Below, one piece after another: positions 2,384 to 56,430 of a stretch of DNA of 64,000 nucleotides (position 1 is the stretch's first letter; every line of letters begins with the position of its first letter). This DNA comes from a virus. The notes under the pieces are model-generated. The model made no database searches. It worked only from the letters and a program-made list of their open reading frames with translations, and was not told the origin of the DNA. The translations under genes and the position numbers were made by a program. The stretch lies in the IMG/VR virus record IMGVR_UViG_3300047491_001507; one strand, written 5' to 3'.

Positions 2384-3208
2384 TTATTTAGTACTTACAG
2401 TGTAATTTTTGATCTTTAACCATTGCTCAAAATCATCTTTATTATATTTGTCTTTTTTCTTGTTGTTTTCACTTTGTGTAAGTGGTTGTAAATTATCCAA
2501 AGAATTGATTAGCTTCAAATCAGTGATTCCATAATCAATAAACGCCTGAATAGGAAATATGTGATCAAGATGCCAACTGCCATTTTTAATAGAGTTCCAA
2601 TTAGGATGGCTGACAACATGTTCTTGAAGTTCTTTTGGTCCGTAACCTAACATATCGCTTGTGTGTCCGATTTTACTTTTGCCAGTTGCTTTTAAAGTAG
2701 AAGATAACATCTTACAACATTTCTGTCTTAATTTTCTATTGAGTGCTAATTGTTCTCTATCTGGTTGCCAGCAATAGTGATCAGAGCCTCGTTTGAAATT
2801 CGTTTTTAATCTTGATTTTCTTAATTTTTCGAAACCACATTCTTTGCAATTTTGTTTTTGATGATAGAAAGCAGCAAAATCTATTTCTGCTTCTTGACCA
2901 CATTTACAACGATAGTGATACTTATGATGGATTCCTTTAAATTCTGTATCTAGAAATTCGCACCCTCTTTCACGGAATATTTCCCTTACTTCTTCTAAGG
3001 AGTATTTTTTCTTTCTACCAGTAAGACCACAATAACCACAACGTCTACCTCGTGAAAAATTATTCCATGTGATATGTGATATTGTGCCACATGAACACTT
3101 GTATTTCATATGTTTTTGACAGCCAACATATTCATCTAATAACTCGCATCCTTGCTGGAGAAAATATTCAGCCACTTCTTCTGTTGTTCTTTTTAATGTT
3201 TTTAACAC
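2384..3208 (-). CDS. HNH endonuclease with N-terminal zinc-ribbon repeats (candidate homing endonuclease)
   Basis: Repeated C-x-C ... C-x2-C pairs (KCSCG...CGYCG; CKCG...CKECG); C-terminal HNH signature SWHLDHIFPI...N...N. Confidence 0.55.
   Translation of the reverse strand: MLKTLKRTTEEVAEYFLQQGCELLDEYVGCQKHMKYKCSCGTISHITWNNFSRGRRCGYCGLTGRKKKYSLEEVREIFRERGCEFLDTEFKGIHHKYHYRCKCGQEAEIDFAAFYHQKQNCKECGFEKLRKSRLKTNFKRGSDHYCWQPDREQLALNRKLRQKCCKMLSSTLKATGKSKIGHTSDMLGYGPKELQEHVVSHPNWNSIKNGSWHLDHIFPIQAFIDYGITDLKLINSLDNLQPLTQSENNKKKDKYNKDDFEQWLKIKNYTVSTK
2385..2391 (-). promoter_or_regulatory. CTAAATA motif (minus strand) 4 nt upstream of the 2380 start; overlaps the stop codon of the upstream HNH gene
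   Basis: gtactaaataaaatATG on the minus strand; partly explained by the K-stop codons (aaa taa). Confidence 0.2.
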
Positions 3209-3246
3209 AATAACCTCTACAATTATATAATGTAGAAGTTTTATTT

Positions 3247-4164
3247 TTAGTCAAGAGTAATTGGTCCTTGGAAATCTGAGAACTTATTTATTAGCTCTTC
3301 TTGCCATTTCTCTTTAAGTTCCCATCCTTTGGTCTTCATATACTCACCATCTAACGCCATGCCCCCGCCAGGACCAGGAGGTGCTGAAAATTTACCACGA
3401 ATATGACCCAACATGATCATCGCATGGGCCAAAGCTCCTTCCTGCATAGCCTGTGTCACCTCACGGAAATCCTTGCACTTTTGAAGGTAGTGAACAATAA
3501 CCAACTGAGAACGACAAGGCGTTGGATACAATTTAATCCAACCTAAATCTGATACCCACTCCCAACCACCAATATTTGAACTGACTCTACTGAACATTTG
3601 TTCATACTGTTTGTATAATACCCATTCTCCCATTCTTCCCCACATAGGCTGAATAGGATCAATTAATCCACCTTGAATGGAGGCATAAGCTCCACCTGGG
3701 TAAAAATACTCAATAGGAATCGATCCATCAAGATCAGAAGCTTGAAAAGCAAAAGTTCCATGTTCTTTATAAAATACATTGCGTACCATGCCTACGTCGT
3801 CAGGCAATTTATAGACACTTTTGCCAGGAATGCTGCGAAACGTATAGTAGTCGTAATACTCTGGTCCAGCATAATCTTCAAAAATTTTCAAAGATTGATT
3901 GACTGCTAGATCTAAATTTTGTTCATCTAATTCAACTTTGACAACTGGGGCTCCCAGCATGAGCAAAACATAATCTTTAATATCTTCTCTGACTTTTTCA
4001 CGGTGTTTTCTGCTGCCTAACTTGCGGTCATGAGCAGATACGTATTTGCATGAATTTCCACTGGTTTCACAGCCGGTGGTGGTTTTGGTGGTGCTTCCGC
4101 AAAGATTGTTGTAACTTTGTTGAGAAGGTCTTCCAATTGCTAATGTATTGTTACAATTTGCCAT
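3247..4164 (-). CDS. hypothetical protein (possibly virion-associated)
   Basis: ORF track; divergent from the large 4201 gene; no motif recognised. Confidence 0.3.
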   Translation of the reverse strand: MANCNNTLAIGRPSQQSYNNLCGSTTKTTTGCETSGNSCKYVSAHDRKLGSRKHREKVREDIKDYVLLMLGAPVVKVELDEQNLDLAVNQSLKIFEDYAGPEYYDYYTFRSIPGKSVYKLPDDVGMVRNVFYKEHGTFAFQASDLDGSIPIEYFYPGGAYASIQGGLIDPIQPMWGRMGEWVLYKQYEQMFSRVSSNIGGWEWVSDLGWIKLYPTPCRSQLVIVHYLQKCKDFREVTQAMQEGALAHAMIMLGHIRGKFSAPPGPGGGMALDGEYMKTKGWELKEKWQEELINKFSDFQGPITLD

Positions 4165-4200
4165 AATATTTATATATAGATAAAAGCGGAAGTTTGAAAT

Positions 4201-7549: not shown

Positions 7550-8201
7550 AATCTGGACAACTATCGGATGAAATGGCTGTTAGAAGATATCCCCCCGTTT
7601 TGGGTAGTTTTTGATTAATTCTCCACCATCTTTCGGCTCCTTCTTTTACTTTCAAGTGGATAATGGAGTTTATTGTAATATCTCTTAACGACCATATTTG
7701 CAGTTGTAAATCGGACTGATCTACAACGATTGCTTCAAAAATAAACTTGTCTCCATATTGAGTTGTGTTGTATGTTGATCCATATAAAGAATCAACATGT
7801 GTTAAAGTACCTATTGCTGGGGCACAGAAGAATTTAACTCCGTCTTTTTTAAATAATGCTTCTAATTGCACAGGTTGTTTGACGGGCTGTTGCTCTACAA
7901 TAGGCTCTGTAGGTTGTTCGACAGGTTGTTCTACGATTTCAGGTTGTTTGATTTCTTCGATAAAATCTTTAGTTGGAATGTAGGTATCATTGGTTTTAAG
8001 GTTTAATTTTTCAGAAATATTAAGGACATTGAAATCAGATTTGAATTTCTCAACTGGATTGTTTTTATCTTTAATTACCTCTGATCCAAATCGCATATTA
8101 ATCAATCTTACTTGAGAAATATCCCAATTATCTTGGTGTTGTATTATCGGATTGGGACCTACTAATTTATAGACGCTTCCATCCTTATTTTTAATTGCCA
8201 T
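7542..8201 (-). CDS. hypothetical protein with Pro/Gln-rich linker (PVEQPTEPIVEQQPVKQPVQ)
   Basis: ORF track; low-complexity linker between two domains. Confidence 0.35.
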   Translation of the reverse strand: MAIKNKDGSVYKLVGPNPIIQHQDNWDISQVRLINMRFGSEVIKDKNNPVEKFKSDFNVLNISEKLNLKTNDTYIPTKDFIEEIKQPEIVEQPVEQPTEPIVEQQPVKQPVQLEALFKKDGVKFFCAPAIGTLTHVDSLYGSTYNTTQYGDKFIFEAIVVDQSDLQLQIWSLRDITINSIIHLKVKEGAERWWRINQKLPKTGGYLLTAISSDSCPDFS

Positions 8202-9072
8202 ATTTATATCCGACTTTTGTCGCAGCTTTGCCTGTAATATTTATTCCAGACTCTTTGTACATTTGGTTATTTACGATTTTGCTAATAGTTGACACACCTA
8301 CATTAAAAGTATTGGCTAGGTTTTTAAGAGAAAAGCCTTCTGACCTTAATTTTCTGATATTGTTGGCTTTTTCTCTGTTTAGTATCGGTCCTGACCAATA
8401 TTTTCCTTGTTTGTCTTTGGGTGCTAAGCTTATATCTATCTTGTAATCAAAGCAATCGCCAAATTCTTTGACGTATTTTGATACGATTTTCATAAAATGA
8501 AAATAGGATTTTGCCGATATTCTAATTATCATTCCTTTTTTGGTTCTGCAAGTTTTAGCTGTGATGTTGAATTCATTTTTAAGACAATCAACCAAAAATT
8601 GGGTTTCGTTTTCACTAAAAGCTTGAGTATGTAAAATAACGCTTTTGCATCTCTTTTTACTGCAAACGTTATTTTGTCCATCTTGTACAAACCAATGGGC
8701 CAAAATACGAGGCGTCAATTTTAAATCAGACGGAACGCATTTAGTTTTATTTTTGTACCATTTTTCCCAAATTTTGGTGAAGTCTGGATTGCATTTGGTC
8801 CAAAAATAATAATGTTTGCAATATTCGCCATTCCATTCTTCAAGAGAATGGATTATTTTTCCATCTCTTCTGGAGGGTTTTTTCGATATGCCCATTCTTA
8901 CTTCACAAGACACATATGAATCAAATTGTTTGTAAAGATAATGTACATATTTTTCGAATTTTTCACATTGTTTTATTTTAAACATTGCGTTTTTTGAACG
9001 AATGCTATTTAGACATAAACAACCATCTCCCAAAAGACTGCCCATCATGATTTCATAAAGTTTGTTTGTCAT
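8191..9072 (-). CDS. LAGLIDADG-family homing endonuclease with C-terminal HTH
   Basis: Two LAGLIDADG-type motifs (MGSLLGDGCLCL and LAHWFVQDGQ) at the expected roughly 100-aa spacing; C-terminal HTH-like NIRKLRSEGFSLKNLANTFNVGVSTISKIV; 11-nt overlap with the downstream gene. Confidence 0.55.
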   Translation of the reverse strand: MTNKLYEIMMGSLLGDGCLCLNSIRSKNAMFKIKQCEKFEKYVHYLYKQFDSYVSCEVRMGISKKPSRRDGKIIHSLEEWNGEYCKHYYFWTKCNPDFTKIWEKWYKNKTKCVPSDLKLTPRILAHWFVQDGQNNVCSKKRCKSVILHTQAFSENETQFLVDCLKNEFNITAKTCRTKKGMIIRISAKSYFHFMKIVSKYVKEFGDCFDYKIDISLAPKDKQGKYWSGPILNREKANNIRKLRSEGFSLKNLANTFNVGVSTISKIVNNQMYKESGINITGKAATKVGYKYGN

Positions 9073-9149
9073 GCTGTATATAGAGTAAAAAAATTTGAAT
9101 TTTTACCCCGCATGTGCATAAATAAACATATAATTTTGGAGGTTTTTTC

Positions 9150-9572: not shown

Positions 9573-10073
9573 TTAGAAGCTTAAAGGTTTCAATAGGCTT
9601 TTTGGTTTTTTCCAACCTTGTCGATATTTGGACACTATCCAATCGATAAATGGCGACAGAATGCTATTAAAGATTACATCTTTGATTTTAGGAGCAAATG
9701 GCTTGAGCCATATCGGCATTGCTTCAACAATCACATGATCATAAATTTGTTCTGTGGCGTATATCACGGTGGCTTTCTTATCTGCACTATTATCTAGAGC
9801 TTCATCGACATAAACAACAAATTGATCTAAGCAATGCAGTATAAATTTTGTTGCTTTAATTATCATTCCTTTCTTAGTCCAAAATTTATACCATGGTTGA
9901 GCTTGTTCTATTTTATTTGATTCGTCCCATTGAACTTTAGCATCTTCAATAAACGTATCAATAGATTCATCGGTTACAACTTGACCTACAGGATTTGCTT
10001 CGCTTGTTTTGATGTCTACCATATTGGCACTCTCCAAAAAGCAGTTGTGTATAAAATTATATACTGCTATCAC
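9573..10073 (-). CDS. hypothetical protein
   Basis: ORF track. Confidence 0.3.
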   Translation of the reverse strand: MIAVYNFIHNCFLESANMVDIKTSEANPVGQVVTDESIDTFIEDAKVQWDESNKIEQAQPWYKFWTKKGMIIKATKFILHCLDQFVVYVDEALDNSADKKATVIYATEQIYDHVIVEAMPIWLKPFAPKIKDVIFNSILSPFIDWIVSKYRQGWKKPKSLLKPLSF

Positions 10074-10086
10074 ACTAAATAGTTAT

Positions 10087-10689
10087 ATGGCAATATACAA
10101 TCCAGACGGCAGCGAATATAAACCATCAGGTAGTTTAGCTCAATTTGATCCTAAAAACCCAGAATTTAATGTTTTTAATGTTTGGGACCAAGAAGCTATC
10201 GAAATGGGAGGCACTCCCTTATATTATTATGAGGTTTTCATCAACGTCAATAACATTGATGAGTTATATGTAGAAGCAAGAGACAAGATATATTCGCAAT
10301 TCCCTGTAATAATCCATGGTTATTATGAGCCAATTCCCTGCACAAATACTTTGGGAACATTTGGCATTGATTCTCCAGACGAAATGATGTTTGAGTTTAA
10401 TTATCGACATGTACTGAAGACTTTGGGACATGCTCCTAAGATTGGAGCTAGAATTTTTTCTCCTCATAAAAGCGAAAATTGGATTGTAATCCAAAGAAAC
10501 ACTGAAGTTTATAAGCTTTGGGGAGAATTAAGACTTCAGGTCATGTGTCAACGATTCCAGGAAAGCCTTACGACTGGAGAGGGCAAAGTTACTTTGAATA
10601 ATCAGCCTGATTATAAAATCAATAGTATTAAAGACCTGAAAGCAAATAATGGAATGAATATGGCCGGTGGGCAAACTTCTATTCCCTAA
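10087..10689 (+). CDS. hypothetical protein (neck/tail module candidate by position)
   Basis: Track ORF starts 10009 but overlaps the convergent gene; internal ATG at 10087 (MAIYNPDGSE) is the likelier start. Confidence 0.3.
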   Translation: MAIYNPDGSEYKPSGSLAQFDPKNPEFNVFNVWDQEAIEMGGTPLYYYEVFINVNNIDELYVEARDKIYSQFPVIIHGYYEPIPCTNTLGTFGIDSPDEMMFEFNYRHVLKTLGHAPKIGARIFSPHKSENWIVIQRNTEVYKLWGELRLQVMCQRFQESLTTGEGKVTLNNQPDYKINSIKDLKANNGMNMAGGQTSIP

Positions 10690-10834
10690 CAGGTTTATGT
10701 ACATGCCTGAATAACACAAGAGGTATTTTAGGCGGGATTAATTTGAAAATTAATTTGGTTTTCTTAATCGAATTTTTATTTTTAAAGAACTTTAAAGCCA
10801 TATCATAATATATAAACAATATAGGAATTTTTTT

Positions 10835-11851
10835 ATGTCAGAGCCTACTTTAGTTCCATGCAATGAACCAGGAGATATCAAACAATTAAATGCAGATCCT
10901 GCGGTTCCATTTTGCAAACAGGCAGTTGTTCAAGAAACATCTGGGACTATAGATCATCAGCCGGTTGTCACCAATATAAATGATGTTACAGGAAGTGATT
11001 TATCTTGGTTAGAAGAAGCAACACAAAGAAAAATGGGACAAGGAGAACCTGTTACTTGTGATCCTCAGCAGACGGGTCACATTATTAACGAACAAGGAAT
11101 GAGTCCTCCTAATAGAGACACAGTATACAGATATGAAAAATCTTTACGAGGAACTGACGAAGCTGTCAGAAAGATGTTTCAAGACATAGTGGTAATAGAT
11201 GAATCTGGAAAAGCACACAATATACCTATTATTTGGGCCACACAAGAGAAAGCAGTGGCTTATATTATTCAAGAAAATGTGCGTAAGGATGAAAGCTTAG
11301 TAGTGGATCGAGTTCGTTTGCCCATGATGGCAATACATCCTTCAAATTACCAGTTTAATCAATCTAGATACACTTACCATAAAGCGATAAATTATTTAAG
11401 AAGACGAGATTTAGATTGGAGTCCAGGATTCACGGTCAAAGAACGTTATGAAAGAGATACGGTTTTTGGAGTTTCTCGGGGAATTCCTATTGATATTAGT
11501 TACACTTTGATTGCTTGGACTTTATATGAAGAAGATATGAATCAGATTCTTACTCAAATTGCTACAAAATTTAGCCCTATGGCGTATATAAGAGTAAGAG
11601 GAGTTTCGTGGGAGGTCGGTGTTAAACTTGACTCGATAGGAAACAATGTAAATGTTGAGCCAGGAGACAAACAAGTACGAGTTTTTAAATATCAATTTGG
11701 GATTACTGCTGAAACTTATATTTCGCAGCCAATTGTTAGAAGAAAAGCAGTGCTGAAAACTAAAGTTGAAGTTACCGATAGTACTAATGAAGAAGACATA
11801 AGTGAGGTCTTGATTAGGTTAGAAGAGGCAGTAAAGGAATTAGAACCATGA
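10835..11851 (+). CDS. candidate tail-sheath stabiliser / tail-completion protein (T4 gp15-like)
   Basis: Lies immediately upstream of the sheath gene; segments HNIPIIWATQEKAVAY and YTLIAWTLYEEDMNQILTQIATKF resemble, as I recall them, gp15-family motifs; needs HHpred. Confidence 0.4.
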   Translation: MSEPTLVPCNEPGDIKQLNADPAVPFCKQAVVQETSGTIDHQPVVTNINDVTGSDLSWLEEATQRKMGQGEPVTCDPQQTGHIINEQGMSPPNRDTVYRYEKSLRGTDEAVRKMFQDIVVIDESGKAHNIPIIWATQEKAVAYIIQENVRKDESLVVDRVRLPMMAIHPSNYQFNQSRYTYHKAINYLRRRDLDWSPGFTVKERYERDTVFGVSRGIPIDISYTLIAWTLYEEDMNQILTQIATKFSPMAYIRVRGVSWEVGVKLDSIGNNVNVEPGDKQVRVFKYQFGITAETYISQPIVRRKAVLKTKVEVTDSTNEEDISEVLIRLEEAVKELEP

Positions 11852-12075
11852 TAGAAATTAAAAATAAAACAAGAAGTCCGATACAACTACTTGTTAGATC
11901 AGGGACGGCCCCTCGTTCATTTACAACTTTAATCGTTCCTGGAATAGGAAAAGGTAATAATGTCACATTAATAGAAGATGAACGCAAGACCGATATTATT
12001 GAACGTGTGGAGAAATTGGGCCTCATCTCCACTAAATATATTCCAAACTCAGAGATTCGTTTAAGGGAGATATAA
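11848..12075 (+). CDS. small hypothetical protein
   Basis: ORF track; ATGA overlap with upstream gene; contains the CACTAAATA motif near its 3' end. Confidence 0.3.
   Translation: MIEIKNKTRSPIQLLVRSGTAPRSFTTLIVPGIGKGNNVTLIEDERKTDIIERVEKLGLISTKYIPNSEIRLREI
12032..12038 (+). promoter_or_regulatory. CTAAATA motif 39 nt upstream of the sheath ATG (candidate late-promoter -10 element)
   Basis: cactaaatata followed by strong SD aagggag and ATG 12078. Confidence 0.3.
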
Positions 12076-14450: not shown

Positions 14451-14460
14451 TTTTATTAAT

Positions 14461-14492
14461 AACCTTCTGAGGAATTAATTCCTCAGAAGGTT
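14461..14492 (+). terminator. perfect 32-bp palindrome (aaccttctgaggaatt|aattcctcagaaggtt) between sheath and tube genes; possible attenuator/partial terminator
   Basis: Read directly; followed by a weak T-tract (atattacaaattt). Confidence 0.4.
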
Positions 14493-14515
14493 ATATTACA
14501 AATTTAAAGGTAAAC

Positions 14516-15082
14516 ATGCCTATATCAATGGGAATCGGAGACTTAGGCTCTCCTGCCATAATTATAAAGAGAAAATTTAGATTTACACTGGATATTCAAC
14601 ATCCTTTTGGAACTATACCACGTTCATATGTAAAAGTGGCAAGCAGACCTAAGTTAACTATAGAAGAAAAAGAATTAAACTTTCTTAATTCAACTGAATA
14701 TTACCCTGGAAAAGGCAAATGGGACGCTCTTGATGTGACTTATATTGACGTTGTTGATAAAGCAGGCACAACATTGCAGATACATAATTGGATAAGAACA
14801 GTTTGGAATTTTCATGATGTAGTAAACATGAGACAGTCTGAAATGTTGGGCTGGGGTGGTTTAGCAAATTTAGGTATGTATGACGGTTGTGGAAATCTGT
14901 TGGAATTATGGCAATTGGCCAAGTGTTTTCCAACGAGTGTTGATTTTGGAGATTTGAGTTATGCAGAATCAGATGAAGCTACAATACAATTACAGATAAG
15001 ATACTCGCAAGTTCATTATTTTAATTACTGTGGACCTAAACTTGATCCTAATACAAACAATTGTATGGGATGCTACTTTTAG
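14516..15082 (+). CDS. tail tube protein (gp19-like), paralog 1
   Basis: 188 aa, directly after the sheath; C-terminal YDGCGNLLELW...FPTSVDFGDLSYAESDEATIQLQIRY recalls the gp19 C-terminus; paralogous to the next two ORFs. Confidence 0.55.
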   Translation: MPISMGIGDLGSPAIIIKRKFRFTLDIQHPFGTIPRSYVKVASRPKLTIEEKELNFLNSTEYYPGKGKWDALDVTYIDVVDKAGTTLQIHNWIRTVWNFHDVVNMRQSEMLGWGGLANLGMYDGCGNLLELWQLAKCFPTSVDFGDLSYAESDEATIQLQIRYSQVHYFNYCGPKLDPNTNNCMGCYF

Positions 15083-15751: not shown

Positions 15752-16315
15752 ATGGCTTCAATGGGAGTGCAATTCGGACTAGAGAGGAATCTCTATTCTA
15801 AACGAAAGAATAGATGGTTTCTTGAAATTAATGGAATTAGTCCTGGACCTTCAGATACAAAATTGGTCAACATTCTGCCTCCTGAAAAGGCAGCAAGGCC
15901 ATCTTTAAGCTTTAAAGAAATGGTCGTTAATCATATTACTGAAGATGTTTATCTTCCAACAAAGCCTGATTGGAAACCGCTTAACGTTACTCTTTATGAT
16001 TTACAGAGAAGCTATGCAGATGGAAGTCGGGCTGTTCAATCACATCCGGTTTGGGGATGGGTGCAACAATACTATGAGCCGCATTTAGGAATGGTAGCTA
16101 GGCCCAATCAATATAAGATGTTTAAAACTTGCATAGTTTATATGGTTGATGGCTGTGGAACGGTTATTGAACATTGGACCTATGAACATGCTTGGTTACA
16201 ATCTGTAGATTTTCAGACTTTAGATATGTCAGATTCATCTATTATGTCTTGCGATCTTGTAATCAGATTTGCGAGAGCTTATTTTGGAACTCCTAGCATG
16301 TATGGAATAGGCTAG
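15752..16315 (+). CDS. tail tube-like protein, paralog 3 (divergent)
   Basis: Shares VDGCGTVIEHW...VDFQTLDMSDSS with the two tube paralogs. Confidence 0.45.
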   Translation: MASMGVQFGLERNLYSKRKNRWFLEINGISPGPSDTKLVNILPPEKAARPSLSFKEMVVNHITEDVYLPTKPDWKPLNVTLYDLQRSYADGSRAVQSHPVWGWVQQYYEPHLGMVARPNQYKMFKTCIVYMVDGCGTVIEHWTYEHAWLQSVDFQTLDMSDSSIMSCDLVIRFARAYFGTPSMYGIG

Positions 16316-16608
16316 CTTTCTTCCAGTTGAAATTCATTTTTTAATAATTCTCGCATATTTTCCAAAGCATCTTCTAATTGTTTATTTTTCCATTTTAATT
16401 TTCTGGTGGTTGCACTTTTGTTTAAGCGGCCTTTTTTAGTGTAACATTCTGCTTCATTGTCCAGGAGGCATTCCACAACTTCTGAATATCCATTTTTTCT
16501 TAATTTTTCAATTATTTCGCTTAATTCGAGCAATTGCACCGGATTTGCTGTTATTTTTGTATCCATATACATAATTCTATAAACCTGAAAAAAATATTTC
16601 AAGTACAT
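16312..16608 (-). CDS. hypothetical protein
   Basis: ORF track; 4-nt convergent overlap. Confidence 0.3.
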   Translation of the reverse strand: MYLKYFFQVYRIMYMDTKITANPVQLLELSEIIEKLRKNGYSEVVECLLDNEAECYTKKGRLNKSATTRKLKWKNKQLEDALENMRELLKNEFQLEES

Positions 16609-18216: not shown

Positions 18217-18759
18217 TTAAGATGTTTTTTCATTATCGTAATTTTGACGCTCTTTTCCGTTACGAATCACTAAGTTTTCGAATTTGTCCTGTAAGAATTT
18301 GTGATATCTCTTCTTCAATTCGTTGTAATTCCTCGCTCCTCTATATAACTGGCGCAGGTGATTAAGGACACAAGTTGATAAATAATTAAACGCCTTCCCC
18401 TTACGTGGATCGAATCTGTCTATTTTCTCAAAGCAGATCAGGACGCCTTCTTGAATAGCATCATCCATATCAATGCCGTTAAATTTAGCCCAATGGGCAA
18501 TGTTTTCAGAGAGAAGATAGAAGGCATGGGCCAATTGTTGTTGATGAGTTTGGAAATTGTCGCAAATTTCTTGATGCCTCTGTTTGATTTGTTCTAAATT
18601 TGGTTTTTTTTGATTGTCGTTGTATTTCTTTTTGCGACGTTCATGAGTCTGCTGAAGATCGCTGACAATTAACTCATATCTTGATTTTTGTCTTTTGTGT
18701 TGTTGGAATGCTCTGATTACAGATTCAAATGTCTTATTATTAAGATATTCGTTTGTCAA
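18217..18759 (-). CDS. late-transcription sigma factor, T4 gp55-like (sigma-70 region-2 only)
   Basis: DDAIQEGVLICFEKIDRFDPRKGKAFNYLSTCVLNHLRQ aligns with sigma-70 region 2.1-2.2 (DLIQEG...KFDP.RG.KFSTYA.WWIRQ); 180 aa with no region 4, as in gp55; N-terminus YLNNKTFESVIRAF recalls gp55; apparent TTG start 3 nt after GGAGG. Confidence 0.55.
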   Translation of the reverse strand: MTNEYLNNKTFESVIRAFQQHKRQKSRYELIVSDLQQTHERRKKKYNDNQKKPNLEQIKQRHQEICDNFQTHQQQLAHAFYLLSENIAHWAKFNGIDMDDAIQEGVLICFEKIDRFDPRKGKAFNYLSTCVLNHLRQLYRGARNYNELKKRYHKFLQDKFENLVIRNGKERQNYDNEKTS

Positions 18760-18950
18760 AAAACCTCCTATGGAATATTTATTTATTTTTTCGTACTATT
18801 AATTTAGTGTGGAACTACTGAACATATATTCAAAAATACAGACAAATCCCAGAAATATTGCAGCATATCGGCAATTAATTCAGTATTATAAAGATCGTCA
18901 TATGACTAATGAATCACAGGCTTTTGAAGAACTCATTAAGATAAAATTCA

Positions 18951-21407: not shown

Positions 21408-21676
21408 TTAAAATTGCCAAGTTGGACCCCCAGCCCAAGCATATTTTTAGTTCAGGCTATCAAGGCTATGAATTTGGAGTTACAGAAGGGATTGAAAAGC
21501 CTGATGATTTTTTTGGAGGAACTTGCTTACATGAAGGCCCATTTATTCCTTGTCCAATTGAAGTAAACATGGAAGAATGGGCGACTAGAGAAGTTGATTT
21601 CATAAAAATCGATGGTGAATGGTGGTGGATTAGGCGGGAAGCATTAGATGAAGCTTCCAAAGGAGCAAAGCAATGA
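21404..21676 (+). CDS. small hypothetical protein
   Basis: ORF track; ATGA overlap. Confidence 0.25.
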   Translation: MIKIAKLDPQPKHIFSSGYQGYEFGVTEGIEKPDDFFGGTCLHEGPFIPCPIEVNMEEWATREVDFIKIDGEWWWIRREALDEASKGAKQ

Positions 21677-21879
21677 AGTATTACTTTTTGTTTATTCATG
21701 ATGGGAAATTTCCTAAGTTTTTTGGTCCTTATGATTTGGAATCCGAAAGGGATGATGCGGCAAAGAGTTTTTGGTTCATACATCGTAAAGAAGGACATCT
21801 TATATTCAAAGTGCAGTCACTTACTGATCCTCAAATCTTTACCTTTACTGATTCTGAACTTACGTTTAATTGGACGTAA
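21673..21879 (+). CDS. small hypothetical protein
   Basis: ORF track; ATGA overlap. Confidence 0.25.
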   Translation: MKYYFLFIHDGKFPKFFGPYDLESERDDAAKSFWFIHRKEGHLIFKVQSLTDPQIFTFTDSELTFNWT

Positions 21880-21882
21880 CAA

Positions 21883-22089
21883 ATGTATCAAATCATTGCA
21901 AGTGTCGTTAAGATCCATGAAGATTTGTCACAAACTGGATATAATATTCCAACCTTTTATCTTGATCCTCAGTGTCAAGGCATAACTGATGCGACTCATG
22001 CAGAAAAGGTTGCTAGAGACATAATTAATCCAACAAATGATCACACTATTAAGGTGAATGTTTGTGCTGTTTTCGTTTTTCCAGATTAG
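21883..22089 (+). CDS. small hypothetical protein
   Basis: ORF track. Confidence 0.25.
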   Translation: MYQIIASVVKIHEDLSQTGYNIPTFYLDPQCQGITDATHAEKVARDIINPTNDHTIKVNVCAVFVFPD

Positions 22090-22578: not shown

Positions 22579-22585
22579 CTAAATA
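22579..22585 (+). promoter_or_regulatory. CTAAATA motif 7 nt upstream of the paralog-1 ATG
   Basis: ttctttggcactaaataagttattATG; near-identical 25-nt leader before paralog 2. Confidence 0.3.
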
Positions 22586-24310: not shown

Positions 24311-24317
24311 CTAAATA
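24311..24317 (+). promoter_or_regulatory. CTAAATA motif 7 nt upstream of the paralog-2 ATG
   Basis: ttctttgacactaaataacttattATG. Confidence 0.3.
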
Positions 24318-27779: not shown

Positions 27780-29477
27780 ATGGTTTCATTTAAGGAATTT
27801 TTACTTGAGTCTAATTTAAAAGATCGTGCTTCCAACAGATTCACGAAAATCAAGGATATTTTGGCTAAATTGACTCAACAAGGAGTTCCTGAAAGCAATA
27901 TATGGCTTACATTTACTAATGTTCCTAGAATTTCTATTTGGCCCCAATCAGAAACAAGACAACAAGGAACTCCAACTGCATTGTTTGCATATCCATTGAA
28001 CTTTATAAATCATTATGGTCGTAAATTTGAAGATTTTTACTATTACGGCTGTGATCGAGCTTTTATGGTTATTTTTATTGTTAATGAAAACATTAACGAT
28101 ATTGGAGGAAAAACTGATTTTGACATTAGTCAATATTCTTTAAGTAAAAATTATGCTAGCGTAGCTAAAACAGTATTTAGAAAAATAACCAATACAAGCG
28201 ACGAAGAACAAGAATGCTTAAGTGTAATTTTCAGTTACATACAAAATCATACTCATGGTGCTGTATCGCCAGTTCCTAATGTGTTGCAGATGGCAGAAAA
28301 TGCAGTGGATATAGCCTTAGAACGTGTTTTATTTAATGCTTTTGATACCCTACATGGCGGCGATACTATATTTGGCGAAACGATAGATAGAGTTTATCAT
28401 AGTGTAGAGAAATTTGAACCAGAGCTATATTCTGAACTAGCAGGATCAGAATATAAAGCAGAATTATCTGCGGGAGTAGTTCTAAAAATCGAAAAATACC
28501 CCCAATTCAGTCATTTGGTCAAATATGCCAATAAAGTAATCCTATACGGAAAGGAATTGTTAGATTTTGACAAACAAATTAGAAAGTCTACAGCTAGCAT
28601 CGATCCATCTAAAATAGACAAAGAAGAATTGTTTAACAAAACCGTGACATTTATTAAAGAGTGTAATAGTTCTTTTGCAGAATTTATAAAGCAACATAAT
28701 GATGTATTGAATAGCAAAACATTTCCTAAAAAGGATGAGCTTATAAAAATCGCAACTGAACACCAATTAGATCTTAATTTAGCAATAATAAACGCCGCAC
28801 GCTCTGTCATGCCAATTGAAAATGAAAATCAATTTGTTTATAGAATAGCAGAAAATTTAGCAATGCAATGGGCTGATAAAGATGATAAGCATAAATATTG
28901 GCCGTCTAGATGGGCTAGAATCCTTAAAAGACTTGGAATCTCAAATATAGTAGACTTACAACATACTGGGGCTGTACATGGTTCTGAGCCTACTCAAGGT
29001 GCATTTTTCGATACAAGAAAATTAGAGATGGTGGCGGTGTTAGTAAACAGATCGCATCTAGATCCTCGTACTGTATTGGTCGATAAATATAATTCAGGAC
29101 ATCTTGAGCCAGGAGGCTCTCAACGAAAGAAAACTCCTACAGGTTGGAATTACTATAATTCTCCAGAAGAGAAAAAAGCTACAGGCTTGGCTGTCTATGC
29201 AAACCAATTATTTACTCAATTAGCAAGCAGCATCGATTATATAAAGTACTTTATGGTAAATCCAGAAGTTGAAATAGGAAAAGAAAGAGCCTCTGTAAAA
29301 CGATTAAAAAATTTGGTCAATAGATATGTTAAGATTCATGACTGGATAGCCCGTAATAAGCCTCATTTAGCAAATGAAATTCGGAGATCTTTACAGGAAA
29401 TTGATTTAGATTCAAGAAAGGAACTATCGCCAATATTGCACAGGCTGGATACGTGTTTAAATTTGGATAACATATAA
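27780..29477 (+). CDS. paralog 4 of the tandem family
   Basis: MVSFKEFLLE|SNLKDRASNRF...; VYRIAENLAMQWADKDDK..YWPSRWARILKRLGISNIVDLQHTGAVHGSEPTQGAFFDTRKLEM. Confidence 0.6.
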   Translation: MVSFKEFLLESNLKDRASNRFTKIKDILAKLTQQGVPESNIWLTFTNVPRISIWPQSETRQQGTPTALFAYPLNFINHYGRKFEDFYYYGCDRAFMVIFIVNENINDIGGKTDFDISQYSLSKNYASVAKTVFRKITNTSDEEQECLSVIFSYIQNHTHGAVSPVPNVLQMAENAVDIALERVLFNAFDTLHGGDTIFGETIDRVYHSVEKFEPELYSELAGSEYKAELSAGVVLKIEKYPQFSHLVKYANKVILYGKELLDFDKQIRKSTASIDPSKIDKEELFNKTVTFIKECNSSFAEFIKQHNDVLNSKTFPKKDELIKIATEHQLDLNLAIINAARSVMPIENENQFVYRIAENLAMQWADKDDKHKYWPSRWARILKRLGISNIVDLQHTGAVHGSEPTQGAFFDTRKLEMVAVLVNRSHLDPRTVLVDKYNSGHLEPGGSQRKKTPTGWNYYNSPEEKKATGLAVYANQLFTQLASSIDYIKYFMVNPEVEIGKERASVKRLKNLVNRYVKIHDWIARNKPHLANEIRRSLQEIDLDSRKELSPILHRLDTCLNLDNI

Positions 29478-29483
29478 TAAATA
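29474..29483 (+). promoter_or_regulatory. ATAATAAATA (T4 late-promoter TATAAATA-like) about 16 nt upstream of the paralog-5 ATG, followed by SD GGAG
   Basis: catataataaatagtgtggagtattacgATG. Confidence 0.3.
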
Positions 29484-34662: not shown

Positions 34663-34947
34663 AGCTTTGGGGAATTCTCATGGAGGAGTTATTCTTTTTC
34701 CAATATCACATGCACATGAGCAGGCGTGACTGTATGAGCCTGCCCATTCATGAGAGGAAATGGATGATTCAGCGATTTATTGATCAAAAACGATTAGAAC
34801 ATGAAGCTTTAGAAAAAGCAAAGAAGAAACGATGAGAAACTTTTGGATATTAAACAGGAAAAAAAAAGAAGAACTAGCAAAACAAGTGCCAAAACATCTA
34901 GATATTAGAAATATCGTTATTTTGAAAAAACTTTTAGGGAAAACAAA

Positions 34948-39841: not shown

Positions 39842-39871
39842 AATGTATGTAGTTTTCTGGCTTTATCTTTT

Positions 39872-47088: not shown

Positions 47089-47478
47089 TTATTGTGTCAA
47101 AAAAGGAGGTTGCGGCCCTGGAGGAATATTTCCAGTATTAGTGTTTAATGGAGGCATTTCAGGAGATGCGCCTTTTTTGTTATGCTTTTTGTTTTCTTTG
47201 TCTTTGTTATATTTTCTATCTAAAAAATCAAAAAAATCAATATCTTCATCATCTTTAGGTAAAGTTGGATTACCACCGACAGGAGGGCCTGGAGGAGCCC
47301 CTAAGCCACCACCTAAATCTGGAGGTCCACCTAAGCCAGGAGGAGGGCCTGGAGGAGCAGCACCGGCACCGCCACCTAAATCTGGTCCACCGAGCCCTGG
47401 AGGTCCACCAGGAGGAGCGGCTCCTCCCATTCCCATTTCAGGACCTTGTTCATTAATGATAAAGTGCTTAAATCGCAT
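47089..47478 (-). CDS. Pro/Gly-rich low-complexity protein with targeting-like N-terminus (MRFKHFIINE)
   Basis: Repeated PPGLGGP(P)DLGGG units; local GC-rich island in an AT-rich genome; CTAAATA 4 nt upstream. Confidence 0.4.
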   Translation of the reverse strand: MRFKHFIINEQGPEMGMGGAAPPGGPPGLGGPDLGGGAGAAPPGPPPGLGGPPDLGGGLGAPPGPPVGGNPTLPKDDEDIDFFDFLDRKYNKDKENKKHNKKGASPEMPPLNTNTGNIPPGPQPPFLTQ

Positions 47479-47482: not shown

Positions 47483-47489
47483 TATTTAG
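47483..47489 (-). promoter_or_regulatory. CTAAATA motif (minus strand) 4 nt upstream of the 47478 start
   Basis: gaactaaataagaATGcga on the minus strand. Confidence 0.3.
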
Positions 47490-49108: not shown

Positions 49109-49324
49109 TCACATATGAATGTTAGCAGCTAGTTTAGAACGAATTTGCATTTCTTCAAAGGCTTGTCGTTCCATGTTTTTTTGTCCCACATATCTAGCAA
49201 TCAGCCACTTGCGATAGTCTTCAGGTAAACTTTGAACTTCGCTAGGTGCCCAATGAAAATGATACATTAGAAAAAACTGTTCCTCATCTGCTTCTGTTGC
49301 TTGATATTTTAGTTCTTCTTCCAT
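49109..49324 (-). CDS. small acidic hypothetical protein
   Basis: ORF track. Confidence 0.25.
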   Translation of the reverse strand: MEEELKYQATEADEEQFFLMYHFHWAPSEVQSLPEDYRKWLIARYVGQKNMERQAFEEMQIRSKLAANIHM

Positions 49325-54757: not shown

Positions 54758-55023
54758 CCCCAAATAAAGAATGTTACTTTGATTTCGGACAACTTGAGAT
54801 TGTTAATGCAAAGAAAGTGAAAGTTTTTGTCAAAAATGGACCTCGTGAATTAGAAGTGGGAGATATCATTGGCGGTAGACGGATTATCGCCATTAATATC
54901 AAAGGAATTAATTCAGACAACTTAGGAATTGGCATGAATGGCAAGATTACTCTCGATGGCATGCCAATGCTTACTATTGGCGTGCCATATGACAATATCA
55001 TTTCAAAACAATTTTTGTTTTGA
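54754..55023 (+). CDS. small hypothetical protein
   Basis: ORF track; ATGA overlap. Confidence 0.25.
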   Translation: MTPNKECYFDFGQLEIVNAKKVKVFVKNGPRELEVGDIIGGRRIIAINIKGINSDNLGIGMNGKITLDGMPMLTIGVPYDNIISKQFLF

Positions 55024-55534
55024 TGCGATATTGATTGCTGAAGACGATTTCATCTACTGTCACAGTAGTTCCTGAAAATTCTGTATTGCCTGCATACTTT
55101 TTGCCTGTTCCTTTTTTGACATAGGCAATTGTGCAGTGGGGCTCGTACTTTGGATGCGTCGAGCTAAAACTGCAATTTTTTCTTAATTTTTCATTTAGAC
55201 GATGTAAATCTTTACTTTCCACAGTGAATTTTACTACATCGTATTCTTCATTTTCAAAGACCGATGTTTCTTTGATTTCAAATGTAATAGGCTTTTCGCC
55301 TTTAACGACCTTTTTAACACGGTCTGGCGTTTTGTCGTGTAAACCATACAAAATAGTTACATGACAATCATCTTCTCTGCCATAATCTTCTATATCATAC
55401 ACATCAGAATCTGGAATTAATTTCTTTCCAAATTTCATTACTTTCTCAGCAAGGGCATGCGGCAAATTTACATGGGTTGACGAATATTCATGTTCTGTCT
55501 TCTCTAATAAAAACTGTTTCCAATTTCTCATCAT
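54998..55534 (-). CDS. 2H phosphoesterase (LigT-like) with targeting-like N-terminus (MMRNWKQFLLE)
   Basis: Two H-Φ-[ST]-Φ motifs, CHVTILYG and PHCTIAYV, about 75 aa apart in a 178-aa protein; CTAAATAAA 35 nt upstream and SD aaagg. Confidence 0.5.
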   Translation of the reverse strand: MMRNWKQFLLEKTEHEYSSTHVNLPHALAEKVMKFGKKLIPDSDVYDIEDYGREDDCHVTILYGLHDKTPDRVKKVVKGEKPITFEIKETSVFENEEYDVVKFTVESKDLHRLNEKLRKNCSFSSTHPKYEPHCTIAYVKKGTGKKYAGNTEFSGTTVTVDEIVFSNQYRIKTKIVLK

Positions 55535-55569: not shown

Positions 55570-55576
55570 TATTTAG
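55570..55576 (-). promoter_or_regulatory. CTAAATA motif (minus strand) 35 nt upstream of the 2H phosphoesterase start
   Basis: tcctaaataaaatagcgtgactatattataaaagcgaaaggttaATGATG on the minus strand. Confidence 0.3.
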
Positions 55577-55596: not shown

Positions 55597-56175
55597 ATGG
55601 ACTCTTTAACAAAAATTATAAAAGAAACAGAAGCCTTAGATATTAATATTGAGCCTTTTACAGCAGATTTTCCTTCTACTATTCGGGATTCTGTTCTTCA
55701 AACCAATTTTTATTGGGGGTTAGCAGCTTATATTTCTCTGTTTAAAGTGAAAAAAGTCTTAGAATTAGGCACTTGCACAGGAGCAAGTGCTGCTATTATG
55801 GCAAGGGCCGGTGCAGAAGTTGATACCTATGATTTATTGGATAAATGGGAACTTCCCAAAATAGACAATTTGTATCGCCATATTGTTCCTCAAGATTATT
55901 TGGAATTTTTGAAATTTGAAGGTTATGACATGATCTTTGTAGATGTAGGACACGATGGTAAAGCAGAACAAGAAATTCACGAAAAACTAACAAAAGAATA
56001 TAAAGGCATTGTGTTCTATGACGATATCATCATAAACCAAGATATGATCTATTTCTGGAATGGAATTAAACAAGACAAATTGCCTTTATTTTGGCATGTG
56101 GCAAAATATCCCTCAGCCAATCCTGGAGGAGGACTTATCACCAAGAATGTTGGGTTTGGTATTGTCAGATATTAG
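55597..56175 (+). CDS. class I SAM-dependent methyltransferase (O-methyltransferase-like)
   Basis: Motif I VLELGTCTGASA, acidic DTYDL, MIFVDVGHD; start moved to internal ATG (MDSLTKII) because the track ORF (55477) overlaps the convergent gene. Confidence 0.45.
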   Translation: MDSLTKIIKETEALDINIEPFTADFPSTIRDSVLQTNFYWGLAAYISLFKVKKVLELGTCTGASAAIMARAGAEVDTYDLLDKWELPKIDNLYRHIVPQDYLEFLKFEGYDMIFVDVGHDGKAEQEIHEKLTKEYKGIVFYDDIIINQDMIYFWNGIKQDKLPLFWHVAKYPSANPGGGLITKNVGFGIVRY

Positions 56176-56418
56176 TTTCTTTTGACCCCTGCGTTTATTT
56201 ACATTTTCTTTATGATCGTGAGGAGCCATGATTCCATTTTTACCTGGAGGTCCTTTATCTCCATAATGAATCCAAAGATATGTAACAACATCAGCAGAAC
56301 CAGGAGTTGTGTATAGAGGAGGATATTGCCCTACGACATCATAAATTGGCGGATATAAGCCGATTTTTGATCCTGTGCGTTGATCTTTTTCTAAAAGCAA
56401 CCATTCTTTGAATTTCAT
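56113..56418 (-). CDS. small protein with targeting-like N-terminus (MKFKEWLLLE) and a short collagen-like GDKGPPGKNG segment
   Basis: N-terminal motif; CTAAATA 5 nt upstream. Confidence 0.35.
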   Translation of the reverse strand: MKFKEWLLLEKDQRTGSKIGLYPPIYDVVGQYPPLYTTPGSADVVTYLWIHYGDKGPPGKNGIMAPHDHKENVNKRRGQKKLISDNTKPNILGDKSSSRIG

Positions 56419-56423
56419 ATAAA

Positions 56424-56430
56424 TATTTAG
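56424..56430 (-). promoter_or_regulatory. CTAAATA motif (minus strand) upstream of the 56418 start; the same bases on the plus strand give TATAAATA (56418-56425) about 70 nt upstream of the 56493 gene
   Basis: catataaatatttag read directly: bidirectional T4-late-promoter-like element. Confidence 0.3.

Follow-up and report, generated by a model that had tools for sequence, protein, structure and literature searches.

A candidate T4-type late promoter box at leadered and putatively leaderless distances from start codons in a huge-phage locus encoding a gp55-like sigma factor

The heptamer CTAAATA recurs upstream of the tail sheath gene and of several other genes in a stretch of viral DNA, tens of nucleotides from some start codons and only a few from others, which raises the question of what the element is and what reads it. 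The window, by which we mean the whole stretch analyzed, comprises 64,000 nt of one strand of IMG/VR virus record IMGVR_UViG_3300047491_001507 and has 35% GC. It most plausibly belongs to a huge, T4-related jumbo phage of "group 2"; the window contains the T4-like core genes for sheath, a gp15-like protein, gp46/47-like SbcCD, and a minimal sigma factor, and no RNA polymerase genes were seen in it. The complete genome is probably larger than 300 kb, of which the window covers 64 kb. From the positions, orientation, spacing, and clade-wide conservation of the element, together with the family of the sigma factor, we infer that the element is a promoter, that it acts late, that the sigma factor encoded at 18217-18759 reads it, and that some of its transcripts are leaderless. 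In the reading that we consider probable, a short, -10-only late promoter, (A)[C/A]TA-N-ATA, works with a gp55-like sigma and serves both leadered and leaderless genes.

A sequence-only reading of the window had described CTAAATA as a recurrent element pointing toward starts. Direct checking of the sequence confirmed the coordinates and strands of all the copies it listed, and both ATAATAAATA at 29474 and TATAAATA at 56418(+) are present; a further copy at 10075(+), 5 nt before ATG 10087, had been omitted. The recurrence holds for orientation and position and not for total count. The window has 21 copies, compared with 15.3±3.7 in shuffles, and 8 of 100 shuffles reach 21, so the word is not over-represented. 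Eight of the 21 copies, however, are sense-oriented and lie no more than 60 nt upstream of a start, where 0.73 would be expected (binomial p=3e-7). The same upstream regions contain a single antisense copy, and none of 2,000 composition-matched shuffles of these regions reached 8 copies. The remaining 13 copies fall within genes. The CTAAATA signal is thus one of position, not overall abundance. The k-mers most enriched upstream of starts are TAAATA (6-mer), ACTAAAT (7-mer), and ACTAAATA (8-mer); the last is the commonest form of the box in this genome, with 7 of 8 copies placed in sense orientation no more than 60 nt before a start codon. Across the clade, the consensus is [AC]TA-N-ATA.

The variable distance between box and start, which the sequence-only reading had found odd, resolves into two classes: 4-7 nt without a Shine-Dalgarno (SD) sequence, and 15-47 nt with one, the latter including the sheath gene, a tail-fibre-like gene, and the sigma gene. 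In 13 of the 74 window genes, 2-9 nt separate a box from the start; each of these genes begins with ATG and lacks an SD, which 40 of the 61 other genes possess. This mutual exclusion is partly forced, since either element would occupy the same 15 nt. With so short and AT-rich a box, whose fourth position is degenerate, chance may account for some of the sites assigned here, above all for those with the variants CTAAATT, CTACATA, and ATAGATA. The sites close to an ATG, all of them without an SD, are as follows.

2385..2391 (-): CTAAATA, 4 nt before ATG 2380 of gene 1904-2380 (MRSFIGWL)
4167..4176 (-): TATATAAATA, before ATG 4164 of the head-tail adaptor-like gene 3247-4164
9077..9083 (-): CTATATA, 4 nt before ATG 9072 of the LAGLIDADG homing endonuclease gene 8191-9072
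10075..10081 (+): CTAAATA, 5 nt before ATG 10087 of a gene for a 200-aa protein (MAIYNPDGSE)
22579..22585 (+): CTAAATA, 7 nt before ATG 22593 of paralog 1 (MGFKDFVIFE)
24311..24317 (+): CTAAATA, 7 nt before ATG 24325 of paralog 2 (MLFKEFLNISE)
39846..39852 (-): CTACATA, a one-mismatch variant, 4 nt before ATG 39841 (MQNFKNFL)
47483..47489 (-): CTAAATA, 4 nt before ATG 47478 of gene 47089-47478 (MRFKHFIINE)
56424..56430 (-): CTAAATA, 5 nt before ATG 56418 of gene 56113-56418 (MKFKEWLLLE)
57053..57059 (+): ATAGATA, 5 nt before ATG 57065 (MNFKSWLE)
57798..57804 (-): ATAAATA, 5 nt before ATG 57792 of the YkwD/SCP-like secreted protein gene 57367-57792
57811..57817 (+): CTACATA, 5 nt before ATG 57823

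Several of these sites are informative in their own right. Paralogs 1 and 2 are identical at 28 of 32 upstream nucleotides (88%), versus 55% nucleotide identity in their coding sequences. The start of the 10087 gene was reassigned from TTG 10009 to ATG 10087. Its orthologues in about 20 relatives have an [AC]TA-N-ATA or TATATA box 4-8 nt before the ATG, and those in other relatives have a plain SD; because members of this one family carry one or the other, box and SD are alternatives. The copy at 2385(-) overlaps the TAA stop codon of the upstream HNH endonuclease gene 2384-3208(-), the copy at 47483(-) sits in a divergent intergenic region, and the copy at 56424-56430(-) overlaps TATAAATA at 56418-56425(+) as a palindrome. 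Within TATATAAATA at 4167(-), TATATAA lies 5 nt and TATAAATA 2 nt before ATG 4164, and the opposite strand carries ATAGATA (4176-4182, +), with an 18-nt gap to ATG 4201. The product of gene 3247-4164 matches PHROG 211, a head-tail adaptor family, and an orthologue in a related locus (L001) has ATAAATA 5 nt before its ATG.

In the second class, the box is followed by a leader, as at the following sites.

10809..10815 (+): TATATAA, 19 nt before ATG 10835 of the gp15-like tail sheath stabiliser gene
12032..12038 (+): CTAAATA, within ACTAAATA from 12031, 39 nt before the sheath ATG 12078; SD AAGGGAG
18801..18807 (-): CTAAATT, 41 nt before the TTG start 18759 of the sigma gene
29477..29483 (+): ATAAATA, 15 nt before ATG 29499, the probable true start of paralog 5; SD GGAG
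34898..34904 (+): CTAGATA, 43 nt before ATG 34948 (MAKERYQNPV)
55570..55576 (-): CTAAATA, 35 nt before ATG 55534 of the 2',5' RNA ligase / Acb1-like gene 54998-55534; SD present
59243..59249 (+): CTAAATT, a weaker variant, 45 nt before ATG 59295 of the gene for a giant tail-fibre-like virion protein; SD present

The sheath box is located within the 3' end of a small gene (11848-12075), where its codons read ACT-A[AG]A-TA[TC] in 16 of 17 close relatives, preserving CTA[AG]ATA while neighbouring wobble positions vary. Close relatives have CATAGATAA at the same distance upstream of the gp15-like gene. Paralog 5 had been described as preceded by ATAATAAATA; the sequence is there, but the start is most likely ATG 29499, which places the ATAAATA 15 nt upstream. 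The orthologue of the 34948 gene in another relative (L078) has ATAGATA 5 nt before its ATG.

We extended the spacing analysis to 80 related huge-phage loci (sigma 53-73% identical, GC 30-56%); the clade is uncultivated, its contigs measure 340-600 kb, and its SDs are strong and of the AAGGAG type. Distances from [AC]TA-N-ATA to the ATG of long open reading frames (ORFs) peak at exactly 5 nt, with 34 non-redundant sites (39 including the window), compared with 9-13 sites at neighbouring distances and a background of about 4. Reverse-complement and permuted control words gave no peak; a smaller one, of 18, came from the box word simply reversed, which coincides in part with the box wherever ATATATA runs occur. 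At the 5-nt gap, clade and window together have ATG 39 times and GTG not once. SD-type spacings in the same data are broad, unlike the peak for the box, which is sharp to one nucleotide. Non-redundant sites show the 5-nt peak again in relatives whose GC content reaches 55% and in which GC-rich flanks set the box apart. At six sites, all with a 5-nt gap, a strong intrinsic terminator (-13 to -26 kcal/mol) ends 5-16 nt upstream of the box, leaving no room for another promoter or a leader. No -35-like conserved sequence was apparent by eye in the 25 nt upstream of 69 box sites. The box was absent upstream of the tail tube, 18951, 31461, and baseplate-hub families.

A sigma70/sigmaA promoter was considered and rejected, as CTAAATA is out of register with TANNNT (no A-11/T-7) and has neither a TG extension nor a -35 element. 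A sigma70-type scan of the window gave only 3 matches near gene starts, none of them at a box. Elsewhere in the clade, the 84-aa gene that adjoins the sigma gene has orthologues preceded by true sigma70-type promoters; many relatives have a host-type TTGACn-17-TAnnnT promoter directly against the ATG of this sigma-adjacent gene, which suggests that leaderless starts are used in the clade independently of the box.

The candidate reader of the box is encoded in the window itself.

18217..18759 (-): gp55-like minimal sigma, 180 aa, region 2 only; proposed reader of the box

This ORF was recognized as a gp55-like, region-2-only sigma from the letters alone, and profile searches bore this out. It has sigma region 2 only (Pfam Sigma70_r2, 31.5 bits; cut-off, 24) and matches PHROG 234, "late sigma transcription factor" (E=1.8e-5). 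Comparison of the sigma-family profile with a T4-type gp55 profile by hhalign gave E=4.7e-5, with a probability of only 68%. A gp55 HMM built from seven T4-type gp55 proteins and run on 12,450 ORF fragments gave 82 hits at E<=1 (83 sequences searched), all of them sigma orthologues; ORF 18217-18759 was its sole match in the window (E=5.8e-5). By PHROG, profile-profile comparison, and the T4 gp55 HMM, sequence similarity thus assigns this ORF to the gp55 family. No sigma paralogue was found in the window or in the 80 sigma-gene neighbourhoods, and the DNA-facing region of the sigma is almost invariant across the clade.

T4 late promoters are read by gp55 together with gp33 and the gp45 sliding clamp, and T4 late genes, so far as is known, have SD-containing leaders. 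The system described here is like that of T4 in its short, AT-rich, -10-only element without a -35 and with the common core TAAATA, in its minimal region-2-only gp55-family sigma of about 180 aa, and in the placement of the box before some virion genes, among them those for sheath, neck, and tail fibre. According to passages of Nolan et al. 2006 (PMC1524935), the T4 late promoter is TATAAATA at -13 to -6, and that of Aeromonas phage Aeh1 is CTAAATA, beginning at -12. These passages bear out the earlier assignment of the box to the T4 late-promoter class, with CTAAATA as a variant used by a T4-like phage. The Aeh1 heptamer is identical to ours, including the unusual C at -12, and its gp55 is divergent; Aeh1, however, is a conventional T4-like phage of a gammaproteobacterium, whereas the present phage belongs to an uncultivated huge-phage clade. 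The same passages make no mention of a leaderless arrangement in Aeh1.

The box differs from that of T4 at positions 1-2, which are A-C here and T-A in T4, and in a central position that is degenerate across the clade. About one in two boxes here abuts a start codon, implying leaderless mRNA. In the DNA sampled, neither a gp33 homologue nor the clamp-binding C-terminal motif of the sigma was found. The earlier reading had pointed to gp33 as a homologue to look for; a gp33 HMM (6 diverse T4-type sequences) found nothing at E<0.3 either in the window or in the 1.1 Mb of DNA that lies within ±10 kb of 80 sigma genes, nor is the conserved 84-aa protein encoded beside the sigma like gp33. The LDF[LM]-type clamp-binding motif (e.g., SLDFLYE in T4 gp55) is absent from the sigma C termini of 36 clade members (...RNGKE...); it is present in enterobacterial T4-type gp55 and absent also from the cyanophage gp55 compared. 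No clamp gene (gp45) was identified in the general annotation of the window genes. Passages of Iyer et al. 2021 (PMC7824862) describe "group 2" jumbo phages that have a minimal sigma and a gp33 orthologue and lack their own RNA polymerase, and contain no description of their promoters. The T4-like core genes and the lack of visible RNA polymerase genes in the window agree with this group; the gp33 orthologue reported for it in those passages is undetectable in the DNA sampled here.

The T4 and Aeh1 elements end at -6, so with a 5-nt gap transcription would begin at the A of the ATG, yielding a leaderless mRNA. Leaderless genes are known elsewhere, for example lambda cI transcribed from PRM and the middle and late genes of Thermus phage phiYS40. 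The close-box genes resemble these in lacking an SD, in their obligatory ATG, and in a -10 element placed at a short, constant spacing from the start codon, the gap being the promoter's own -10-to-+1 distance. They differ in that the -10 element is of the gp55 late type and not the housekeeping TANNNT hexamer, and in that the arrangement is concentrated on proteins with N-terminal targeting peptides.

Genes would use this element in two arrangements. The box, of the same kind as T4 TATAAATA and Aeh1 CTAAATA, would most likely be read by host RNA polymerase core carrying the phage gp55-like sigma 18217-18759(-). In leadered genes (sheath, tail-fibre-like gene, gp15-like gene, paralog 5, and sigma gene), a box 15-47 nt upstream would give a normal SD leader. 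The other class, about 13 genes out of 74, has no SD, and only 4-7 nt (mode, 5) lie between the end of the box and the ATG; the first transcribed nucleotide would be the A of AUG or one within about 3 nt of it, and the mRNAs would be translated via direct ribosome binding to the 5' AUG. Leaderless transcription had been raised earlier as one option for the 4-7-nt copies, and we favour it because this distance is what is expected of a -12 to -6 element that starts transcription no more than about 3 nt from AUG. With their 7-nt gaps, paralogs 1 and 2 would not start exactly on the A of the ATG, nor would the gene behind TATAAATA at 4167, where the gap is 2 nt.

The box could instead be a promoter read by another factor: a second phage sigma, a host sigma redirected by a phage protein, or an RNA polymerase that the phage encodes beyond the window. 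We regard this as unlikely, even though only 64 kb of a genome probably larger than 300 kb is visible, tblastn located two sigma-like places in a 595-kb relative (LR756511.1), and group 2 jumbo phages carry both minimal and RpoD-like sigmas according to the passages of PMC7824862. In addition, no co-variation ties the sigma to the box, since the DNA-facing region is near-invariant and the fourth position of the box varies freely. Against another reader, the box fits the known specificity of the gp55 family (T4, Aeh1), to which the sole window sigma belongs, and does not fit the sigma70 -10 hexamer; a sigma paralogue is lacking from the window and the 80 neighbourhoods, and the same passages report group 2 phages to be without an RNA polymerase of their own. 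A different proposal is that the copies at 4-7 nt act on the mRNA, as an AU-rich ribosome-loading or enhancer element or a RegA-like operator, with only the distant copies, if any, being promoters. The operators of T4 RegA are AU-rich and overlap start codons. In favour of this proposal, the motif lies in sense orientation where a ribosome-binding site would be, in genes without an SD, and a strand-specific element adjacent to AUG is equally compatible with an RNA signal. We nevertheless judge it improbable, as SD-led genes have this word too, 15-47 nt before the start, where no ribosome footprint reaches, and the spacing peak is sharp to one nucleotide at the value predicted from promoter geometry, unlike SD spacings. 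The six terminators ending 5-16 nt upstream also require the promoter to lie where the box is, and the host-type promoter abutting the ATG of the sigma-adjacent gene points to leaderless starts that do not depend on the box.

Finally, the box might have no function and be a by-product of AT-rich intergenic DNA, of stop codons at gene junctions (TAA lies inside CTAAATAA), and of duplicated upstream regions of the paralogs. The overall count is indeed within chance, the genome has 35% GC, the 2385 copy overlaps a stop codon, and two copies are part of a duplicated 20-mer. This explanation is strongly disfavoured and, in our estimation, very improbable. The shuffled upstream regions never yielded the observed count, and the ratio of sense to antisense copies is 8 to 1. 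The 5-nt peak appears in non-redundant sites and in relatives with up to 55% GC, synonymous sites preserve the sheath box, and a box is missing altogether from many upstream regions, such as those of the tail tube, 18951, 31461, and baseplate-hub families.

The preferred reading, a late promoter read by the gp55-like sigma, is partly consistent with the genes that carry the box. The sheath, head-tail adaptor-like, gp15-like, and virion structural proteins and the targeting-peptide proteins are virion or virion-associated, and no box precedes the ribonucleotide reductase or SbcCD genes of the window. The box is also found before genes that are not obviously late, namely those for the LAGLIDADG endonuclease, the Acb1-like protein, and the sigma. 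The close-box class comprises most of the proteins with N-terminal "targeting" peptides and the head-tail adaptor-like gene.

The promoter type is already known from T4 and Aeh1; the new part is the clade-conserved, putatively leaderless architecture. We suggest, tentatively and on the strength of sequence comparison, that this abundant clade may possess a dedicated leaderless late regulon, driven by a gp55-like sigma apparently without gp33 or clamp coupling; initiation exactly at the AUG would extend to about one gene in six, preferentially those for proteins with capsid-targeting-like N-terminal peptides. If so, late transcription would be tied to a distinct mode of translation initiation for proteins apparently destined for the capsid. 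The mRNAs for virion cargo would bypass SD-dependent initiation late in infection by direct recognition of the 5' AUG, a possible translational switch independent of host 30S initiation.

More generally, (A)[C/A]TA-N-ATA together with a gp55-family sigma would provide a late-promoter rule for a widespread huge-phage clade seen only in metagenomes, by which late and virion genes could be predicted in hundreds of unannotated contigs. Many genes in the clade would lack a ribosome-binding site because their mRNAs probably start at AUG, and taking this into account should improve start-codon calling, as in the shift from 10009 to 10087. The sigma gene may itself be among the targets: besides the CTAAATT at 18801, ATAAATA occurs 16 and 20 nt before its TTG start, and autoregulation is possible. 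In relatives, cagTATATA[GAC]ATACC is strongly conserved about 40 nt upstream of the sigma genes.

The window has a GC content of about 35%, and 8 kb of it compared by megablast with GenBank phages gave no match, that is, no close deposited phage relative by DNA. Scans for Rfam families and tRNAs found nothing in it. Its gene set is of the T4-related myovirus type.

Genes of the window
Tail genes: sheath, gp15-like sheath stabiliser, three tail-tube paralogs
Baseplate hub, gp46/47-like SbcCD, ribonucleotide reductase
Head-tail adaptor-like protein
59295 to 64000, giant repetitive virion protein, continuing past the window end
39872-41479(-), full-length CTP synthase (PyrG; NCBIfam, 653 bits; 61% identical to the LR756511.1 orthologue)
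16646-18076(-), 2384-3208(-), 8191-9072(-), homing endonucleases (two HNH, one LAGLIDADG)

The 595-kb uncultured phage LR756511.1 carries an open reading frame (ORF) with 55% identity to the sigma-like ORF at 18217-18759(-), and the genes flanking it are syntenic between the two genomes at 30-60% amino-acid identity. An IMG/VR scan with this sigma returned 80 loci (53-73% identity, contigs up to 533 kb, GC 30-56%), and based on these matches the window is a member of a large environmental huge-phage clade; an identical sigma was found only in one 7.5-kb Logan contig. The window fits the "group 2" jumbo phages, which passages of PMC7824862 describe as having T4-like cores and minimal sigma factors but no RNA polymerase of their own. 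Gene runs that are otherwise syntenic are split by the three homing-endonuclease genes. One of these, the HNH gene at 16646-18076(-), separates the sigma gene from a conserved neighbour gene encoding 84 amino acids and had no tblastn match in the LR756511.1 locus (L001; 444287-484796) or in any of the 80 IMG/VR loci. L001 also lacks a sheath gene between the gp15-like and tail-tube genes (its positions 21650-23282), unlike most IMG/VR relatives, which keep it. A strong hairpin lies 3' of the sheath gene, at 14451-14515 in the window and in the orthologous regions of 61 loci.

The sequence-only reading had noticed CTAAATA in front of several genes, and all of its coordinates were correct on recheck. 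The word is not over-represented in total (21 copies versus 15.3±3.7 in dinucleotide shuffles), so any enrichment lies in its bias toward gene starts: on a 74-gene map of the window, 8 of the 21 copies are in sense orientation and no more than 60 nt ahead of a start codon, where 0.73 would be expected (p=3e-7). Those upstream regions hold a single antisense copy, and none of 2000 composition-matched shuffles of them attained eight. With a preceding A (ACTAAATA), 7 of 8 window copies are so placed. We relied on k-mer enrichment, in which TAAATA, ACTAAAT, and ACTAAATA were the top upstream 6-, 7-, and 8-mers, as an EM motif search gave only low-information AT-rich motifs. A further copy at 10075, absent from the earlier list, is 5 nt upstream of ATG 10087, the correct start codon of the gene concerned. 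A sigma70-type promoter scan of the window gave almost no matches upstream of genes and yielded no early promoter class to set against the box described below.

The heterogeneity of distances, which had been called odd, resolves into two classes of what we term the box, CTAAATA and its variants.

Boxes upstream of window genes (SD, Shine-Dalgarno sequence)
Close class, heptamer ending 4-7 nt from the ATG, no SD
CTAAATA: starts 2380(-), 10087, 22593, 24325, 47478(-), 56418(-)
ATAAATA: start 57792(-)
TATATAA/TATAAATA: start 4164(-)
One-mismatch CTACATA, CTATATA, ATAGATA: starts 39841(-), 57823, 9072(-), 57065
Distant class, box 15-47 nt upstream, then a normal SD
Sheath gene, 39 nt
54998-55534(-), 35 nt
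Paralog 5 (start 29499), 15 nt
Gene at 34948, 43 nt
CTAAATT: tail-fibre-like gene, 56493, sigma gene

All 13 close-box genes start with ATG and none has an SD, compared with an SD in 40 of the 61 other window genes, a contrast that is partly forced because box and SD compete for the same space. Between paralogs 1 and 2 (starts 22593 and 24325), the 32 nt upstream are 88% identical, versus 55% for coding DNA.

In the related loci, excluding the window, we measured the distance from the degenerate box [AC]TA-N-ATA to the next ATG opening an ORF of at least 80 codons. It peaks with one-nucleotide sharpness at 5 nt, with 34 non-redundant sites where the background is about 4. No peak appeared for reverse-complement or permuted control words; the plain reversed word, overlapping the box in runs of ATATATA, had a smaller peak of 18. 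With the window included, 13, 39, and 9 sites fall at 4, 5, and 6 nt, and GTG never occurs at the 5-nt gap. Some of the sites come from relatives with 51-55% GC, in which the box is distinct against GC-rich flanks, and the sites recur on the MAIKN(P/K)DGS, MxCNNNTL adaptor-like, and M-x-F-K-x-[FW]-L "targeting" protein families.

Among orthologues of the gene at 10087, about 20 relatives have a box 4-8 nt from the ATG and no SD, and others have an ordinary SD, which makes the two interchangeable. The sheath-upstream box sits within the preceding small gene, at its 3' end, where the codons ACT-A[AG]A-TA[TC] are kept in 16 of 17 close relatives, preserving CTA[AG]ATA, while neighbouring wobble positions vary freely. 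At six sites a strong intrinsic terminator (-13 to -26 kcal/mol) has its T-run ending 5-16 nt before the box, and the box-ATG gap is 5 nt in all six. Since a gene right after a terminator needs its own promoter and nothing is there but the box, this arrangement argues for the box as promoter. Upstream regions of the tail-tube, 18951, 31461, and baseplate-hub families are without any box, so AT-rich leaders do not carry the signal as a matter of course. Among tail-tube orthologues, only 3 of 61 have an upstream box, which suggests that read-through from the sheath promoter accounts for their expression.

The window's sigma had been likened to T4 gp55, with region 2 only, and the searches agree. 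Pfam finds sigma region 2 only (31.5 bits), and the ORF matches PHROG 234, "late sigma transcription factor." Profile-profile alignment of the family with seven T4-type gp55 proteins gave E=4.7e-5 (probability 68%), and a T4-type gp55 HMM run against 12,450 ORF fragments retrieved sigma orthologues only (window copy, E=5.8e-5). Residues 76-152 are extremely conserved, and the N-terminal EYLNNK-FE-II resembles NYVNNKELLQAII of T4 gp55. Membership in the gp55 family is thus supported. PDB searches with the sequence and the family profile gave only weak region-2 matches to cellular sigmas and no T4 gp55 entry. Neither the window nor 1.1 Mb of sigma neighbourhoods yielded a gp33 homologue, which had been proposed as a check, and the sigma lacks an LDFL-type clamp-binding tail, so we do not claim the full T4 gp55-gp33-gp45 mechanism.

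About 40 nt upstream of many sigma ORFs in relatives (L003-L036) lies a strongly conserved cagTATATA[GAC]ATACC, with an SD about 22 nt further on. No other version of the box is as long or as well conserved as this one, which suggests that the sigma gene is autoregulated.

In all 81 related loci the sigma gene is followed directly by the gene for the 84-aa acidic protein (16312-16566(-); orthologues in L001 and L003-L082), which has the conserved core CYTKKGRLNKSxTxR..WKxKQLEDAL. It probably begins at ATG 16566 (MDTK...), with a sigma70-type promoter (TTGAAA-17-TAGAAT) abutting this codon. The protein may be a sigma partner. As a gp33 analogue it was rejected (hhalign 0.1% against T4 gp33, 0.4% against a six-sequence gp33 profile), its PDB matches to ankyrin repeats were spurious, and its AF2 single-sequence model was too poor for use (pLDDT 59).

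According to passages in Nolan et al. (PMC1524935), the T4 late promoter TATAAATA occupies -13 to -6, and Aeromonas phage Aeh1, with a divergent gp55, has CTAAATA from -12, which bears out the sequence-only reading's statement that some T4-like phages use CTAAATA variants. The observation of start-directed boxes is confirmed; its interpretation as a T4-type late promoter of the -10 class is supported. An element ending at -6 would leave five nucleotides before +1, so at the modal 5-nt gap transcription would begin with the A of the ATG and give a leaderless mRNA; gaps of 4-7 nt would give leaders of 0-3 nt. Leaderless or short-leader transcripts had been offered as one option for the close copies, and this geometry favours it. 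A leaderless start would explain together the absence of an SD, the exclusive ATG, and the terminator-box-ATG order. It would not be peculiar to the box in this clade, since in many relatives a canonical TTGACn-17-TGnTAnnnT promoter abuts the ATG of the 84-aa gene.

That the close copies act instead at the RNA level is improbable, given that distant copies exist, that the spacing peak is sharp and at the promoter-predicted value, and that some boxes adjoin terminators. Chance is a very remote explanation, given the statistics of placement and the fact that the clade conserves the pattern. Somewhat unlikely, though worth keeping in mind, is a promoter read by a factor other than ORF 18217-18759, as most of the genome lies outside the 64-kb window and LR756511.1 has a second sigma-like match. 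In a co-variation check, each of the two sigma subclades had all box variants and the DNA-facing part of sigma was nearly invariant, leaving no co-variation to tie one to the other.

The promoter type (T4, Aeh1) and gp55-like minimal sigmas in jumbo phages are already known, and our literature search returned nothing directly relevant on leaderless late phage promoters, CTAAATA alone, or LR756511. What is new is a promoter definition for an uncultivated huge-phage clade, together with a putative leaderless class that the clade conserves and that centres on proteins with the targeting peptide.

An N-terminal M-x-F-[KR]-x-[FW]-[LI], often followed by [ILV]-x-E (examples, MKFKEWLLLE and MGFKDFVIFE), is shared by at least 14 proteins of the window and by many proteins of relatives (L001, L038, L043, L046, L048, L052).

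Starts of window proteins with the N-terminal peptide
2380(-), 22593, 24325, 26066, 27780, 29499, 31204
38677, 39841(-), 47478(-), 56418(-), 57065, 55534(-), 22505(-)

About half of these genes are box-led and without an SD. We take the peptide to resemble the T4 capsid-targeting sequence and prohead-protease cleavage site.

A second word that recurs upstream, (G)CTATATTA(C/T), is found 17-28 nt ahead of genes with an SD, among them those for CTP synthase and the first tail-tube protein, and directly follows a terminator hairpin in at least two cases. Four of the six window copies of CTATATTA are upstream of starts; the word could be either the box in variant form or a promoter class of its own.

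Genes preceded by (G)CTATATTA(C/T)
463-906(-), 39872-41479(-), 49109-49324(-), 54998-55534(-), 14516-15082(+)

The divergent genes 33086-33460(-) and 33493-34662(+) have 32 nt between their starts (33461-33492), and this intergenic region includes the palindrome TACTCTAATAGAGTA. In relatives, AGAGT is retained directly in front of the minus-strand gene's ATG, and so is ACTATGAT about 35 nt upstream; together these suggest another promoter or operator type common to the baseplate-hub gene pair.

A 52-aa ORF (MEELFFFQYHMHMSRRDCMSLPIHERKWMIQRFIDQKRLEHEALEKAKKKR) lies at 34680-34838(+), inside a 285-nt gap of the 74-gene map. The 3' part of the giant virion-protein gene (about 62870-63960) is built from tandem coding repeats, each about 171 nt long (…TSSDLTA-RA-…ASGK-AVSATTSTELGYV-GVTGAIQTQLN-KQATITGAAST…), and PHROG 16122 matches seven stretches.
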